Shown piece after piece: positions 4,120 through 54,104 of a stretch of DNA of 64,000 nucleotides (position 1 is its first letter; every line of letters starts with the position of its first letter). The DNA comes from Patescibacteria group bacterium (GTDB taxonomy: Bacteria > Patescibacteriota > Minisyncoccia > Phycocordibacterales > BOKC01): contig JBBTWE010000001.1 of assembly GCA_038062955.1 (NCBI GenBank), positions 389,640 to 453,639 of the forward strand, written 5' to 3'. Under the pieces are notes generated by a model. That model was not told where the DNA came from. It saw only the letters and a list, made by a program, of their open reading frames with translations, and searched no databases. Both the position numbers and the translations under genes were made by a program.

Positions 4120-5322
4120 TTAATAGTTTTTAAGCCTATCTATTTTTTCGTGGATGCGGAGTTTTTCGAGCGCTTTGGCTTCGATCTGTCTTATACGTTC
4201 ACGAGTCACACCGAATTCCCTTCCCACTTCTTCTAGGGTATGAGTGATGCCATCCACCAAACCATGTCTCATCTCTAGGATTCTGCGTTCTTTTGGAGGT
4301 AAATCATTTAAGATATCTTTGACTTGATCTGCCACAATTCTTCTTGAAGTTTCTTCTGACGGAGAAAGAATTTTATCATCAGCAATAAAATCTCCTAAAG
4401 TGGACTTACCATCATCTTCATCGGGACCAGCCGGACTTTCTAACGACACCGTGCTTTGATCAATTTTTTCGATATTGTATATCTTATCGACATCCAAATT
4501 CATTTCAATCGCAATTTCTTCCTGAAGTGGGTCTCTGCCCAAATCTTGGGCTAATCTCCTCACAACCTGCTTGTATTTGGCAATCGTTTCCACCATATGA
4601 ACTGGTACTCTTATAGTTCTCGATTGATCAGCAAGAGACCTTGTAATGGCTTGTCTGATCCACCAAGTAGCATAAGTTGAGAACTTAAATCCCTTATTCC
4701 AATCAAATTTATCGACGGCTTTAAAGAGACCTAAATTACCCTCTTGAATTAAGTCGAGAAGCGTTAAATCTGGACTTCGGCCAACATATTTCTTGGCAAT
4801 AGAAACCACCAATCGAAGGTTAGAGCGAGCTAGAATATTTTTCGCCTCTTCATCCCCAGTTTGAATTTTCTTAGCTAATTCTTTTTCTTGAGCACCGGAA
4901 ATCAAGGGATATTGGCCAATTTCTTTCAAATACATTTGGATAGAATCGTGTGACAGAGAATCCTTGTAGATATCTTTGCCTTTCCCATTTTCTTCTGGGG
5001 TATCTAAAAGATTACCTCCCTCCAAAAGGTCTATTCCGGCATTGCTCAATTTTTCATAAAGCGAATCCAAAGACAAAATATCATCCTCAATAGTGGGAAA
5101 TTCTCTTAGAATTTCATCATAAGTTATAAAACCTCTTTCTTTTCCTTTCAAAATCAGCTTATCAATAGCCAAATCTATTTTTTTATTTTTGGCTGATTTT
5201 GGAAGATTTTCACTTTCAGGAAGCTCTTTGGTGGCTTTTTTGCGAGTAATTCCCTTAACCTTGGGCTTTTTTGCCTTTTTTATTTTTACTTTTTTTACTG
5301 CTTTTTTCTTTGTTTTTTTCAT
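4120..5322 (-). CDS. rpoD: RNA polymerase sigma-70 factor RpoD
   Basis: Regions 2-4 signatures: [63 protein letters not shown]; lysine-rich N-terminus. Confidence 0.95.
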
Positions 5323-5457
5323 CCCGTTGTGAAATTTCAGGTCGTTCTTCGCAAGCTCGGAACTATCCTGTTATTTTTTGGCTCATTCTTAATAAATAAA
5401 TTTAATTCTTTTATGCATTCCGTAGTAAGTATTTACAACCTGAAATTCTACTACGGG
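5323..5457. repeat. Hairpin repeat family 1 (CCCGTAGT-stem element), copy 1, directly abutting the rpoD ATG
   Basis: Terminal inverted repeats cccgttgtgaaatttcaggt / acctgaaattctactacggg around ~95 bp of AT-rich core; ~85% identical to 25849-26003. Confidence 0.7.
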
Positions 5458-24978: not shown

Positions 24979-25848
24979 TTACTTTAAGTATACAACTGGA
25001 TTTGTTTTGCTTATCGCGGCTACTATTGCACCAATAAGCAACACTTGGGTGGAATAATACACCCAAAGCAGAACCGCGATGAAAGATCCGGAAGCGCCGT
25101 ACACAGCGTCATTGGTATAGAAAAGGTTGAAATATAGTATAAGAGCGGCATTGAGAAAACCAAAGAGTATAGTGCAAATGATTGCTCCTGTGAGTGAGCT
25201 TTTCCATGTCGTCTTCTTACTTCCTACAGTTTTGTACATAAGGGTCAAAAGCAAAATCGTTGAAACGAAAACTAGGAAAAAATTAAGCAATTGTGATTTT
25301 GCAAAAAATTCCAAGCCGAAAAAGTTCGCGGAAAAACTTAAAATTAAGGGCGCAATGACACTTATAAAAACAATCATTAAAATTAAAAAAACTAGATACA
25401 CACTAAAACCTAAAGATTTTAGATAATTCAGAAATGTTTTCTTTAAGTTTTCATCCAAGCCTAACTTCACTCCAAAAATCGCAAAAAAAGATCCTTTTAA
25501 AGTATTGAAAAAGTGCGACAAACCATAGAAGGTTATGAAAAAACCAATAAAAGAAAAAGTTAGGTGTGATTTTGACTGTTTTAGACTTTCAATTAAATCA
25601 TTAATAAAAGATGTGGATTGTTCACCAACTCTATTTTGAAAAAAAGTTAAAAGACGCGTTTCGGCTATGCTTTGATCAATTATTAAACCGCTAAGTGAGA
25701 CAAAAATAATAATGAGTGGCGCCATAGCAGAGATAGCGTAAAAAGCCAAAGCAGCAGCATGCTTTGGGATTTCCACTGATTTTATCTTCGGTATAATTTC
25801 TCCAAAAAAACTTAGTTTAGTTTTTCGGTGATGGAGGGTGACATTCAT
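24979..25848 (-). CDS. YihY/BrkB-family inner membrane protein
   Basis: AAALAFYAISAMAPLIIIFVS signature and about 6 TM helices. Confidence 0.8.
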   Translation of the reverse strand: MNVTLHHRKTKLSFFGEIIPKIKSVEIPKHAAALAFYAISAMAPLIIIFVSLSGLIIDQSIAETRLLTFFQNRVGEQSTSFINDLIESLKQSKSHLTFSFIGFFITFYGLSHFFNTLKGSFFAIFGVKLGLDENLKKTFLNYLKSLGFSVYLVFLILMIVFISVIAPLILSFSANFFGLEFFAKSQLLNFFLVFVSTILLLTLMYKTVGSKKTTWKSSLTGAIICTILFGFLNAALILYFNLFYTNDAVYGASGSFIAVLLWVYYSTQVLLIGAIVAAISKTNPVVYLK

Positions 25849-26003
25849 CCCGTAGTGAAATTTCAGGTCGTTCTTCGTAAGGCTGCGAACTATCCTGATA
25901 TTTTTTGGTAATTTTTAATAAATAAACTTAATTCTCTTATGTGTTCCGTGGTAAGTGTTTGCAACCTGAAATTCCCTGTCTGCCGACAGGCAGGTACTAC
26001 GGG
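25849..26003. repeat. Hairpin repeat family 1, copy 2, abutting the yihY ATG, carrying a nested copy of GC palindrome family 2 (25975-25994) in its distal arm
   Basis: cccgtagtgaaatttcaggt ... acctgaaattc[cctgtctgccgacaggcagg]tactacggg. Confidence 0.7.
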
Positions 26004-26012
26004 ATTCATATA

Positions 26013-26213
26013 TTATGTCTGTTTTTTATACAGTCGGAAAATATAGTAAGCTCCTGCAAGAAAAATTATGAGAAACAAAAGAACTCCTTTCCAAAAAAAC
26101 TCGTAGAAACGAGCCCCGATAAGAATTCCCAAAGAAAGCAAAGAGATTTGATAAATCCCCCACTGCCTTAAGGATAGTTTTAGATTACGAATCCTATTCA
26201 AAACCTCTAGCAT
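26013..26213 (-). CDS. Possible small two-TM membrane protein (about 66 aa)
   Basis: Hydrophobic ORF downstream of trmD; the longer track ORF overlaps trmD out of frame, so only the internal-Met version is plausible. Confidence 0.25.
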   Translation of the reverse strand: MLEVLNRIRNLKLSLRQWGIYQISLLSLGILIGARFYEFFWKGVLLFLIIFLAGAYYIFRLYKKQT

Positions 26214-26232
26214 GATTAAATTATACCACAGA

Positions 26233-26973
26233 CTAAATGCTCTTTTTCTTTTCCCTCCATTCTTTAATTTTCTTGTGATTTCCAGAAAGAAGGATTTTTG
26301 GGACTCGATAATTTTTACCTCCAAAAGTTACAACTTCAGGTCTCGTATAGTGAGGATACTCCAAATTTCCATTTTCCTCATTTTTTATCATCGAGCTTAA
26401 GAAAGATTCCTCTTCTAGAGATTCAAGTTTTATAACGCCAGGAATAAGTCTCGCGATACTCGAAATCATCACAGCCGCCGCAACTTCCCCATCAGTTAAA
26501 ACGTATGGACCAATTGAAACTTCTTCTGCACGAAGAGCGAGCCTCACTCTTTCATCGATTCCTTCGTAACGGCCGGTAATTAGAATTATATGTTTATAAT
26601 TTTTTGCGTATTTTAAAGAAGTTACTTGATCAAATTGCTTGCCTTTGGCCGACAAAATGAGAATTTTCAATTTACTTTTTCCAATCGCTTTCTTTATTGA
26701 TTCGACAACTTTCAAAATTGGTTCAGCCTTAAGAACCATACCAGCCCCACCACCGTATGGCTTATCATCCACTTGAGAAAGCGACCGAGGAGAAATCTTT
26801 CCCTCCTGCCTGCCTGCAGGCAGGTCCAGTTTCAACTTCCCGCCCTCCGTGAAATCCCGAGGATTGTAAAAGTTGATTTTAATTTGCTTGTCTCTCTGTG
26901 CTTTACCCAAAATAGACGTCTCAAAATATGAGCTCATGCTTTCGGGAAAAATTGTAATAATGTGAAACTGCAT
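26233..26973 (-). CDS. trmD: tRNA (guanine37-N1)-methyltransferase TrmD, with an ~18-aa insertion that encodes a GC palindrome
   Basis: DDKPYGGGAGMV, GRYEGIDERV, VLTDGEV motifs; extra segment EGGKLKLDLPAGRQEGKISPRSLSQ between DFT and VDDKPYGGG. Confidence 0.92.
   Translation of the reverse strand: MQFHIITIFPESMSSYFETSILGKAQRDKQIKINFYNPRDFTEGGKLKLDLPAGRQEGKISPRSLSQVDDKPYGGGAGMVLKAEPILKVVESIKKAIGKSKLKILILSAKGKQFDQVTSLKYAKNYKHIILITGRYEGIDERVRLALRAEEVSIGPYVLTDGEVAAAVMISSIARLIPGVIKLESLEEESFLSSMIKNEENGNLEYPHYTRPEVVTFGGKNYRVPKILLSGNHKKIKEWREKKKSI
26814..26833. repeat. GC palindrome family 2, copy inside the trmD coding sequence (cctgCCTGCCTGCAGGCAGG)
   Basis: 16-bp perfect palindrome read in frame as PAGRQEG. 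Confidence 0.6.
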
Positions 26974-27002
26974 ATAACTTAAAATTCAAAAGGCAAAAAT
27001 CA

Positions 27003-27116
27003 AAATTGAAAGTAAAAAGTCAAAATTAGCTTTATGTGCATTCACTTTTGAATTTTGAATTTAAATTTTGACCTTTGATTTTTGCCTTTTGACTTTATCA
27101 TAAAGGATAAAGCTCT
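27003..27116. repeat. AT-rich long inverted repeat family 6, copy 2, in the trmD / KH-protein spacer
   Basis: Arms 27003-27048 and 27064-27116; homologous to 7186-7307. Confidence 0.55.
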
Positions 27117-27179
27117 TCAAAAAAAACAAAACCTCCCAATTTCTCGAGAGGTCTTGTCTTTCTAACATATAGTGCCTAG

Positions 27180-27530
27180 TTATATTTTTAGATCATCCAC
27201 AGCTTGATCCAAACTTTTTGATTTAGGTTCTTTTTCTCGTCTGTCTCTCATTCCTACTGCCTCTCCTCTCTCTGGTCTAACACTTCCTTCTGGTTCGTTA
27301 ATTTTTAAATTAACTCGAGCATTGTTTTTCATCCCAACAACTCGCAAAAGTGTTCTGATAGCCTTTGCTGTATTGCCTTCGCGGCCGATGATCTTACCCA
27401 TATCCCCTGAATTAACATCAAGAGTGATTAGGACTCCCATTTCATCAACTACTCTCTTTATTTTTACATCGCTCGGATTATCAACAAGAGCCTTAACAAC
27501 ATACTCTAAAAATTCAACATCTCTTTCCAT
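27180..27530 (-). CDS. KH-domain RNA-binding protein (YlqC/KhpA-like)
   Basis: GKIIGREGNTAKAIRTLL KH motif; lies between rpsP and trmD as in many bacteria. Confidence 0.8.
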   Translation of the reverse strand: MERDVEFLEYVVKALVDNPSDVKIKRVVDEMGVLITLDVNSGDMGKIIGREGNTAKAIRTLLRVVGMKNNARVNLKINEPEGSVRPERGEAVGMRDRREKEPKSKSLDQAVDDLKI

Positions 27531-27595: not shown

Positions 27596-27985
27596 TTACG
27601 CAACAGGGATTTTCTTTGTTTCTTCTGGAACAACTTTTGCTTCTCCTTGTGGTTTTGTTTCTTTTGGAGTTTCAGTTCCTTCCTTCTTCTCCTCTCCCTC
27701 TTTCTTAATCGGTTTTTTCTTTGGTAAAGCGTTTACTTTTTTGCCAGCAATAACTTTACGGGCGACCAAGAGATTATGGATTGTGTCTGATACTTTGGCT
27801 CCTTGTTTCATCCAATATCCTATTCTCTCAACATTAAATTCGGCCTTCTCTGCGCGTCTTGAATCAAAGGATCCCAATACCTCAAGAGAATTACCGCTTT
27901 TAGGGCCGTTTTGTGATTCAGTAACAACAAGCCTAAAAACCGGCTCATGTTTTCTTCCTATTCTTTGTAATCTAATTTTTAACAT
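27596..27985 (-). CDS. rpsP: 30S ribosomal protein S16 with a Lys/Glu-rich C-terminal extension
   Basis: MLKIRLQRIGRKHEPVFRLVVTESQ...ERIGYW; start set at MLKIRL. Confidence 0.9.
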   Translation of the reverse strand: MLKIRLQRIGRKHEPVFRLVVTESQNGPKSGNSLEVLGSFDSRRAEKAEFNVERIGYWMKQGAKVSDTIHNLLVARKVIAGKKVNALPKKKPIKKEGEEKKEGTETPKETKPQGEAKVVPEETKKIPVA

Positions 27986-28049
27986 TTGTAAGTCAAGGAA
28001 TCTTAGCAGAACTACCATATTCAGTCAATATTTGCTATATTCTAGTTCT

Positions 28050-32828: not shown

Positions 32829-32867
32829 AAAAAGAAAGGGCGACCATGGTTTTAGCCTTGGTCGCCC
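32829..32867 (-). terminator. Rho-independent terminator of the island-B gene
   Basis: gggcgacca-N12-tggtcgccc hairpin followed on the minus strand by TTTCTTTTTG. Confidence 0.6.
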
Positions 32868-32899
32868 GTCTACAGGTGTCGACGCCTAACCCGTCGACC
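32865..32899. repeat. GC motif family 5 copy (reverse orientation) in the 3' UTR of the island-B gene
   Basis: Reverse complement GGTCGACGGGTTAGGCGTCGACACCTGTAGACGG differs at 1 position from 880-912. Confidence 0.55.
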
Positions 32900-51065: not shown

Positions 51066-51085
51066 CCTGCCTGCCGGCAGGCAGG
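51066..51085. repeat. GC palindrome family 2, CCTGCCTGCCGGCAGGCAGG, in the rpmE-prfA spacer
   Basis: Perfect 20-bp palindrome, identical to 54085-54104. Confidence 0.6.
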
Positions 51086-54084: not shown

Positions 54085-54104
54085 CCTGCCTGCCGGCAGG
54101 CAGG
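54085..54104. repeat. GC palindrome family 2, CCTGCCTGCCGGCAGGCAGG, in the rplY-downstream spacer
   Basis: Perfect 20-bp palindrome. Confidence 0.6.

Follow-up and report, generated by a model that had tools for sequence, protein, structure and literature searches.

The window analysed here is a stretch of 64,000 nucleotides from a Patescibacteria group bacterium (assembly GCA_038062955.1, contig JBBTWE010000001.1, positions 389,640 to 453,639 of the forward strand). The subject is a short palindrome which lies in frame within trmD, the gene for tRNA (m1G37) methyltransferase, and the repeat family, here termed PAL, to which this palindrome belongs. The trmD gene (26233-26973, minus strand, 246 aa) was found to be intact according to the open reading frame (ORF) list, homology and structure match, and is preceded by rpsP (27596-28018) and a KH-domain gene (27180-27530) in an rpsP-KH-trmD operon. 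The encoded protein is 100% identical to a TrmD (PF01746) filed at NCBI under 'MAG: Patescibacteria group bacterium' (MAG, metagenome-assembled genome) on a 703,865-bp contig, and the same protein is present on 6 contigs of NCBI, ENA and Logan assemblies. TrmDs of the PDB matched it at ~3e-42 (phmmer), and a Foldseek search with the trmD model retrieved solved TrmD structures, including the tRNA complex 4YVI, at E ~1e-19. The invariant residues of the TrmD family are all kept, including D69, G74-G76 and R135-E137.

Direct sequence comparison placed the PAL copy of trmD at 26805-26824, where the 20-mer CCTGCCTGCCTGCAGGCAGG is one base off the perfect 20-bp palindrome CCTGCCTGCCGGCAGGCAGG, the consensus of the family (19/20). 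Part of this 20-mer is a 16-bp perfect palindrome, CCTGCCTGCAGGCAGG, at 26809-26824. The first-pass annotation, made from the letters of the window, had set the palindrome at 26814-26833; the palindrome is real, but its position had been off by 5-9 nt. Its assignment to the 20-bp family with further copies at 51066 and 54085 was upheld by the 19/20 identity, as was its in-frame position. The copy spans the third base of codon 50 to the first base of codon 57, the coding strand reading GA/C CTG CCT GCA GGC AGG CAG G/AG (slashes marking the ends of the 20-mer), which is translated as D50-L-P-A-G-R-Q56 followed by E, and the frame is kept through the whole palindrome. On the coding strand, PAL stands between GGA and AG, the base before it being A. 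An RNA hairpin of approximately -15 kcal/mol was calculated for the copy. It is not an intrinsic terminator, as it lacks a following U-tract and the region 25800-27200 scored no terminator-like site.

The palindrome is located in an expanded loop of the enzyme, which was examined in an alignment of 120 homologues and in a codon alignment of the window gene with those of the homologues P0002, P0003 and P0004. In the window TrmD, this loop between the DFT and VDD motifs comprises residues E43-Q67 (26773-26847, minus strand), giving 25 residues between PRDFT and VDDKPYGGG vs. 6 in canonical TrmDs. Many TrmDs of Patescibacteria (Paceibacteria) have loops of 9 or 15 residues, and expansions of 3-16 residues were common among the patescibacterial sequences of the alignment. 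P0002 (89% aa identity) has a loop of 25 residues with (L/M)PAGRQ as in the window; the loops of P0003 (85%) and P0004 (74%) comprise 19 and 18 residues and are devoid of the palindrome. The palindrome was absent from P0003, P0004 and the other 116 homologues aligned, and only the window and P0002 carry it, which bears out the lineage specificity anticipated at first pass.

The codon alignment of the four genes revealed a net surplus of 18 nt, or 6 codons, in the trmD of the window and of P0002. Judged from this alignment, only these 6 codons (18 nt, part of DLPAGRQ) would be linked to the palindrome, and the remaining ~13 extra loop residues are read as an older lineage feature because P0003 and P0004 share the loop without PAL. 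The first-pass annotation had attributed an insert of 18-24 residues between DFT and VDDKPYGGG to the palindrome; the loop is indeed long, but the greater part of the insert is present in P0003 and P0004. The observation that had been named as speaking against an element insertion, i.e., relatives without the palindrome sharing the extra residues, was made for most of the loop surplus and not for the palindrome part. That the whole 19-residue surplus represents a single element resembling the Rickettsia palindromic elements (RPEs) is considered very improbable: the difference of 25 to 6 residues, palindrome included, would fit such an element, but it is contradicted by the codon alignment, by the palindrome-free loops of P0003, P0004 and many Paceibacteria, and by the family unit being exactly 20 nt wherever an empty site exists.

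The copy of P0002, CATGCCTGCCGGCAGGCAGG, is also 19/20 identical to PAL, with a different substitution and with the canonical CCGG centre intact. The ancestral insert in trmD was therefore most likely a perfect PAL. The single change of the window copy, GCC to GCA, is synonymous, and the two differences between window and P0002 in the 20 palindrome nucleotides mean that the palindrome is no better conserved than trmD on average. A local origin of the trmD palindrome by CCTG slippage or template switching, or an assembly artefact, with the family resemblance arising by chance, is barely conceivable. In favour of slippage, (CCTG)3(CAGG)2 is a possible reading of the window copy; against this stand the 19/20 identity of the copy to a family of exact members, the CCGG centre of the P0002 orthologue, the fixed length of the family and the absence of control palindromes from IMG/VR (see below). 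An artefact is contradicted by the recovery of the same protein on the 6 contigs, by a substituted orthologue from another sample and by the occurrence of PAL in cultured isolates.

An AlphaFold2 model of the window TrmD, computed from 44 sequences, showed no secondary structure for residues 42-68 and coil with a predicted local distance difference test score (pLDDT) < 50 for residues 47-62, so that the palindrome segment lies in a modelled disordered surface loop, as the first-pass annotation had supposed. Residues 3-42 and 48-211 of Haemophilus influenzae TrmD align to residues 3-42 and 67-243 of the query; residues 43-66 of the latter thus stand in for five residues of the solved enzyme. 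In H. influenzae TrmD, Asp50 reads G36, and Arg52 and Tyr54 hold the anticodon stem (PMC5372744). The equivalent of Asp50 in the window TrmD is D69, and the palindrome-coded segment lies 13 residues before it. The model thus puts the PAL insertion in a flexible loop that tolerates change and borders the tRNA-binding surface, just N-terminal of the Asp that is predicted to recognise G36.

This position raises the question of a selected function, either of an Arg-containing loop next to the anticodon-binding residues or of an mRNA hairpin that tunes translation or decay in the rpsP-KH-trmD operon. Retention in two species whose trmD genes are ~82-83% identical in nucleotides, the 13-residue distance to D69, the synonymous nature of the GCC to GCA change and the stability of the hairpin are consistent with such a function of the DLPAGRQ peptide or of the mRNA, and count to that extent against a neutral passenger. 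However, the closest relatives do without the palindrome, its two differences per 20 nt make it no better conserved than the gene average, a terminator signature is missing and the model gives the segment no structure. Moreover, the same heptapeptide occurs in loops of the unrelated proteins FtsK, GatB and RfbB, as expected of a passenger. We hold a selected function to be improbable.

The family consensus CCTGCCTGCCGGCAGGCAGG is a perfect palindrome of two 10-nt arms without an internal core. Its length is fixed, with (CCTG)2CCGG(CAGG)2 counted 166 times vs. 10 for all other repeat numbers together, and variable addition of CCTG repeats, in a telomerase-like manner or by slippage, was rejected for this reason. 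Approximately 35 filled/empty pairs (34 from the tRNA cassettes described below and one from an element of the window resembling a miniature inverted-repeat transposable element, MITE) revealed an exact 20-nt insertion without target duplication. In the 34 loci, once exactly 20 nt were taken out, the fragment matched the uninterrupted tRNA next to it across 26 nt, without indels and with 0-3 mismatches. PAL is a discrete unit whose many insertions were all precise and left the target unduplicated. All six of its frames are free of stop codons, the encoded peptides being PACRQA, LPAGRQ and CLPAGR. In the flanks of PAL, repeats of at least 6 nt were more frequent than in controls, both inverted (7.4% of copies vs. 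1.8%) and direct (25% vs. 8.7%); with controls that are mostly coding, these values are only suggestive of hairpin loops or the space between direct repeats as insertion sites. PAL was also found in loops of longer hairpins and in the inverted repeat of the MITE-like element. A role of PAL as a generic terminator was rejected, since the flanks across loci showed no enrichment of A/T-tracts and the trmD copy is not terminator-like; this role was kept for the copy at 54085.

To determine the distribution of the family, one genome per GTDB species was scanned with the query CCTGCCTGCNNGCAGGCAGG, and the matches listed, to which the following counts refer, comprised at least 120 stretches with 125 copies. 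Exact PAL was present in at least 120 species genomes from many bacterial phyla. On the side of the Patescibacteria, the hosts were Parcubacteria/Paceibacteria, Saccharibacteria, WWE3, Uhr-, Davies-, Doudna- and Peribacteria; the others were Bacteroidota, Omnitrophota, Planctomycetota, Bdellovibrionales, gamma- and deltaproteobacterial MAGs, Thermodesulfovibrio (Nitrospirota-like) and Chloroflexi. Cultured Bacteroidota with PAL include Winogradskyella (W. echinorum KCTC 22026), Flagellimonas (F. yonaguniensis 334s03), Longitalea (L. luteola SYSU D00799) and Flavivirga. A CG centre was found in 123 of the 125 copies, and the flanks were unrelated. In IMG/VR, PAL matched 35 stretches, compared with 0 and 0 for two composition-matched control palindromes. 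All-against-all BLASTP of 3394 ORFs from 120 loci yielded a largest shared ORF cluster of 6 loci, with no transposase-like gene recurring near PAL; as no ORF family occurred in more than 6 of the 120 loci, PAL is not the end of a larger conserved element.

One viral contig, IMGVR_UViG_3300037242_000417 (29.5 kb; L146, L153 and L154), carries at least 6 exact PAL copies between genes, some of which centre longer inverted repeats. Among the 10 ORFs of this contig that were scanned, no recognisable mobilising enzyme was detected; a match to the phage adaptor-protein family SU10 remained below threshold (25.3 bits vs. a cutoff of 27).

Approximately 9 of the 125 genomic copies are inside credible long ORFs, nearly always in the frame LPAGRQ. 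Examples are FtsK (L020), the dTDP-glucose dehydratase RfbB (L028) and GatB (L111), besides membrane proteins (L050, L078 and L081) and an HsdS-like ORF (L067). In the RfbB-like gene (L028, 2790-2860), a perfect PAL is situated within an older, decayed PAL (GACCTGCCTGC, PAL, CGGTAAGGCAAGGTC), and all of it is translated in frame (DLPALPAGRQAVRQG). The HsdS-like ORF (type I restriction specificity; L067, 2751-4892) has a GIY-YIG domain in frame in its middle, with PAL, read as PACRQAG, ~45 nt upstream, from which it follows that a unit of PAL plus nuclease can sit inside a protein-coding gene, too.

The characteristic surroundings of PAL are a cassette of tRNA sequence and a small GIY-YIG ORF. 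The recurrent layout (L044, L113, L125 and L157) consists of a tRNA 5' fragment split by PAL, the small ORF and, behind it, the same tRNA in intact form. In these loci, the ORFs encode nothing more than a GIY-YIG catalytic domain of 78-88 aa, without a recognisable DNA-binding domain; one example is a 79-aa ORF at 2166-2402 of L044, which is also found at 1201-1437 of L161. Pfam assigned PF01541 to four of them with E-values of 1e-14 to 1e-17, and small ORFs of this kind near PAL surfaced only with a dedicated hidden Markov model (HMM). Among the genomic matches listed, 6 of the 9 GIY-YIG ORFs found in PAL loci were within 150 nt of PAL.

For a survey of the cassette, 80 metagenomic loci were fetched by GIY-YIG protein alignment alone, of which 76 were non-redundant, and PAL was counted at up to 2 changes. 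PAL was found near the GIY-YIG ORF in 58 of the 76 loci (76%), a figure that applies to this subfamily and not to all GIY-YIG proteins, the query set having been drawn from PAL-adjacent genes. In 52 of these loci, PAL was within 120 nt upstream (in 4 also downstream), and in 6 it was found only within 200 nt downstream; the median gap between PAL and the GIY-YIG start was 27 nt. Most of the remaining loci have nested or interrupted PALs or another GC hairpin at this place (L184, L185, L192, L205, L221, L223, L230 and L240). An intact tRNA (Leu, Arg, Lys, Phe or Asn), as detected by ARAGORN, directly follows the GIY-YIG ORF in at least 40 of the 52 loci, and in the variants L173, L174 and L191 the PAL-split tRNA copy is located downstream instead. 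The insertion points cluster at the D-loop/D-stem junction (GGTA/GAGC, GGTAGA/CGCG and GGCGAA/TTGG, the slash marking the point of insertion), at the anticodon stem/loop junction and between positions 9 and 10. Among the cassette copies listed, the base 5' of PAL in tRNA orientation is A in ~50 of 58 distinct flanks by our count, and the trmD copy, preceded by GGA, agrees with this preference. Rfam revealed nothing beyond tRNA and one rRNA in the cassette loci, and collections of cultured phages and plasmids contained almost no relatives of the cassette GIY-YIG subfamily. No account of PAL or of the GIY-YIG/tRNA cassette was found in the searchable literature by sequence, peptide or concept, most subscription journals being outside its coverage.

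Several cassette loci depart from the simple layout. Tandem arrays of tRNA fragment, PAL and GIY-YIG ORF in front of one intact tRNA were observed in L163 (760-1500), L183 (1080-1480) and L231 (1080-1533) and look as if a regenerated tRNA had been invaded again. In L172, L175, L176, L184, L185, L195, L196 and L203, tRNA fragments carry two or more PAL-like or other GC hairpins, some of them nested and some decayed, at two hot spots in the D-loop, as if one dead tRNA fragment had taken up insertions repeatedly. Another GC hairpin of ~33 nt (CCCGCCCG..TACCG..CGGGCGGG) occupies the same D-loop site of the tRNA fragment in L046 (860-905) and in L205, L230 and L234 (~60-20 nt upstream of the GIY-YIG start); several hairpins may thus be interchangeable, with PAL the most frequent of them. 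In L022 (4017-4225), the 5' part of a tRNA, with PAL in the D-arm, and its 3' part (…GGTTCGATTCCCACCCCTGACACCA) are parted by a complete tRNA-Met gene, which looks like a nested or split tRNA.

Taken together, we consider it probable that the trmD palindrome is a solo copy of PAL which is translated as a neutral passenger in TrmD, and that PAL is a discrete insertion unit whose home is the GIY-YIG/tRNA cassette. One PAL copy would have landed in the already expanded, disordered loop of TrmD, most simply in the common ancestor of the window and P0002 lineages; a single insertion in this ancestor is the simplest reading of the alignment, though not a proven one. As 20 is not a multiple of 3, a compensating change would have been needed, and the insertion would have persisted together with such a small change, giving the net gain of 18 nt. 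Its survival is best understood from the disordered loop being hit and the frame being restored, and DLPAGRQ is most likely translated today as a passenger and not as a functional module.

The weak step of this account is the mechanism by which PAL spreads. We infer, giving it close to but not quite an even chance, that PAL would be spread in trans by the cassette GIY-YIG nuclease or would be a repair product of the breaks that this nuclease makes. The tight physical link between PAL and the GIY-YIG ORF suggests two routes. The cassette nuclease could open breaks that are then filled by copying or ligating PAL, or it could recognise the palindrome as a dimer.

Alternatively, PAL may be mobile but moved by other machinery, such as an HUH/Y1-type transposase, an enzyme resembling RAYT (the tyrosine transposase associated with repetitive extragenic palindromic sequences, REPs) or repair and replication acting on hairpins, with the tRNA fragments serving merely as neutral, hairpin-forming targets. 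This would accommodate the many solo PALs with no GIY-YIG gene within 8 kb, the combination of hairpin formation and lack of target duplication that is typical of single-strand HUH systems, the occurrence of PAL in loops of longer hairpins and in the MITE inverted repeat, and the 8 loci whose tRNA fragments have gathered several PALs or GC hairpins at the same D-loop hot spots. It is hard to reconcile with the absence of a recurring transposase-like gene near PAL in the 120 loci, with the symmetry of PAL, which has neither a GTAG/CGTC tag nor asymmetric HUH ends, and with the very tight association with one GIY-YIG subfamily (58/76). Such machinery is regarded as unlikely, if still to be reckoned with.

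A number of observations weigh against the neutral-passenger and cassette-home reading. For trmD, the genes of the window, P0002 and P0003 form a trichotomy (pairwise nucleotide identity 83-84%, informative sites 19:21:14), in which a single insertion in an ancestor, two insertions in parallel and a precise loss from P0003 are formally inseparable. The indel path is likewise ambiguous because the flanks are purine-rich and of low complexity; +18, +20 then -2, and +21 then -3 are all compatible with the alignment. The reading of +20 followed by a 2-nt deletion fits P0003 well, and a plain in-frame alignment of window and P0002 needs substitutions alone. For the cassette, a GIY-YIG ORF was found in only 9 of the ~120 genomic PAL loci (8 kb per locus, among the matches listed), most PALs being solo, and the link between nuclease and PAL is correlative. 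In the 64-kb window, the dedicated HMM detected no GIY-YIG ORF, which leaves a current trans-acting GIY-YIG source in this organism hypothetical.

A bolder version of the account, which we put forward tentatively and as possible rather than expected, is that PAL, being without coding capacity and causing no target duplication, would be the smallest mobile DNA recognised so far. A bare GIY-YIG nuclease of 80-95 aa parasitising tRNA genes would spread it in trans across phyla and phages, with tRNA sequence as portable homology, and the stop-free frames would have let it settle in trmD, ftsK and gatB.

The parallel to Rickettsia drawn in the first-pass annotation is apt as regards the in-frame colonisation of coding sequence and fails as regards the unit, which is 20 bp instead of ~150 bp, is inserted without duplication and is distributed over many phyla. 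RPEs are known from Rickettsia as ten families of ~150 bp, each encoding a conserved peptide of tens of residues (PMC10969869). Like these, PAL is a palindromic repeat that occurs between genes and in frame in housekeeping genes, where its peptide, to judge from the RPE literature (PMC10969869) and the TrmD model, is found where the fold tolerates it. Unlike these, PAL is exactly 20 bp long (6-7 residues), has one invariant sequence that recurs in phages and many phyla, stays in frame only if another indel compensates for it, is tied to the GIY-YIG/tRNA cassette and, at the locus examined here, has a patescibacterial host. The resemblance can be taken only as an analogy and not as membership.

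REPs are GC-rich, hairpin-forming, mostly extragenic sequences of 20-40 bp that have sometimes been proposed to be terminators or mRNA stabilisers (PMC3733652). PAL falls in the size range of REP/REPIN elements and also forms a hairpin. REPs are imperfect palindromes with GTAG/CGTC at one end, each confined to its species or genus and co-evolving with a RAYT gene; PAL is perfect and identical across phyla and shows only the A at position -1 and no GTAG/CGTC tag in its flanks, and no RAYT-like neighbour was seen in the 120 loci. MITEs may insert into coding sequence and produce fusions that keep the frame (PMC10969869), and PAL is likewise a non-autonomous short repeat able to enter genes. However, MITEs comprise 50-500 bp with inverted repeats around a core and cause a target duplication, whereas PAL is a coreless 20-bp unit that causes none, and the true MITE-like element of the window is itself a PAL target. 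With IS200/IS605 elements, PAL shares hairpin DNA and insertion without target duplication; it differs in being symmetric, in a target that is just 'after A' and in the lack of a TnpA-like neighbour, where IS200/IS605 elements have asymmetric ends, a 4-5-nt target and TnpA(Y1).

The GC clusters, PstI palindromes and double-hairpin elements of fungal mitochondria are GC-rich palindromic mini-elements in AT-rich genomes, which insert between genes and occasionally in frame within them (yeast var1) and coexist with mobile GIY-YIG/LAGLIDADG ORFs. They are usually 30-60 bp long, variable and lineage-specific, without a tRNA-fragment cassette, whereas PAL is one fixed sequence of bacteria and phages. 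Free-standing GIY-YIG homing genes are known from the Seg proteins of phage T4 and from the mobile ORF in Allomyces atp6, which brings a partial duplicate of its target. The cassettes of the related loci, the ORF itself not being in the window, resemble these in having a small GIY-YIG ORF in or near a conserved gene whose function is kept by a partial duplicate. They differ in encoding bare catalytic domains of 80-95 aa, in targeting tRNA genes of many specificities and in the fragment being nearly always split by the same palindrome; homing and cleavage are putative. The fungal mitochondrial GC elements and the free-standing GIY-YIG homing genes may be seen, by analogy, as the nearest conceptual relatives of PAL. 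Mobile palindromic repeats have been reported in Fusarium mitogenomes (PMC7218506).

By itself, the trmD event is a modest curiosity, albeit a clean and datable case outside Rickettsia of an essential enzyme that absorbed a repeat in frame near its substrate-recognition residues, and the PAL family appears to be an undescribed, minimal selfish element that crosses phyla. If the link to the nuclease were causal, PAL and the cassette would constitute a minimal selfish system of a new kind and might be a way for DNA to pass between phyla. They would account for the spurious peptides ('LPAGRQ/PACRQA') and broken tRNA calls met with when MAGs are annotated, and would provide for study a 20-bp tag together with a compact nuclease that is site-specific. 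PAL can be tested directly in the cultured Bacteroidota that carry it.

In the window as a whole, PAL-family matches at up to 3 mismatches numbered 8 (overlapping), compared with 0.04 expected from shuffles. A perfect copy at 51066-51085 is located between rpmE (L31) and prfA (release factor RF1), both on the minus strand, and is terminator-like on the minus strand only loosely, the T-run being displaced. Another perfect copy, at 54085-54104, comes after the L25/Ctc gene, on its downstream side. Next to it on the minus strand stands TGTTTTTTTG, and the 12-pair stem of this copy plus T-tract was scored as an intrinsic terminator; this intergenic solo PAL may, on its sequence, have been co-opted as a terminator hairpin in this AT-rich genome.

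A degenerate copy, CCTGTCTGCCGACAGGCAGG (18/20), is found at 25975-25994 in one terminal inverted repeat of the MITE-like element at 25849-26003, which comprises 135 bp plus the 20-nt PAL. A second copy of the element without PAL, at 5323-5457, represents the empty site. In the element at 25849-26003, …CCTGAAATTC and TACTACGGG… are separated by the 20-nt PAL variant and nothing else, and the element at 5323-5457 is without those 20 nt, with no duplication. The element has 19-nt terminal inverted repeats (CCCGTAGTGAAATTTCAGG), its two copies are ~88% alike, and both directly adjoin the start codon of a gene on the minus strand (ORFs 4120-5322 and 24979-25848). The copy at 25849-26003 is missing from the orthologous site of the relative L001, where TATATGAA runs uninterrupted into CGTC, and therefore ATGAA looks like a 5-bp target duplication of the MITE-like element.

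Directly downstream of trmD, at 26013-26215 on the minus strand, there is a small ORF whose product is a membrane protein with two helices (MLEVLNRIRNLKLSLRQWGIYQISLL...); L001, L003 and L004 have this conserved ORF as well. The spacer between the KH-domain gene and trmD is filled by an AT-rich inverted repeat (26976-27096) with arms of ~46-50 nt that are 76-83% complementary, and this repeat abuts the trmD start. Rfam detected one tRNA as the only hit in the window and no family matching a ~34-nt GC-rich stretch that occurs at 880-913 and 32866-32899, in opposite orientation and 32 kb apart. This stretch forms a hairpin with a 7-bp stem (GTCGACG...CGTCGAC), and its copy at 880-913 is situated in the unusually GC-rich first kilobase of the window (GC 0.50 vs. 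~0.38).

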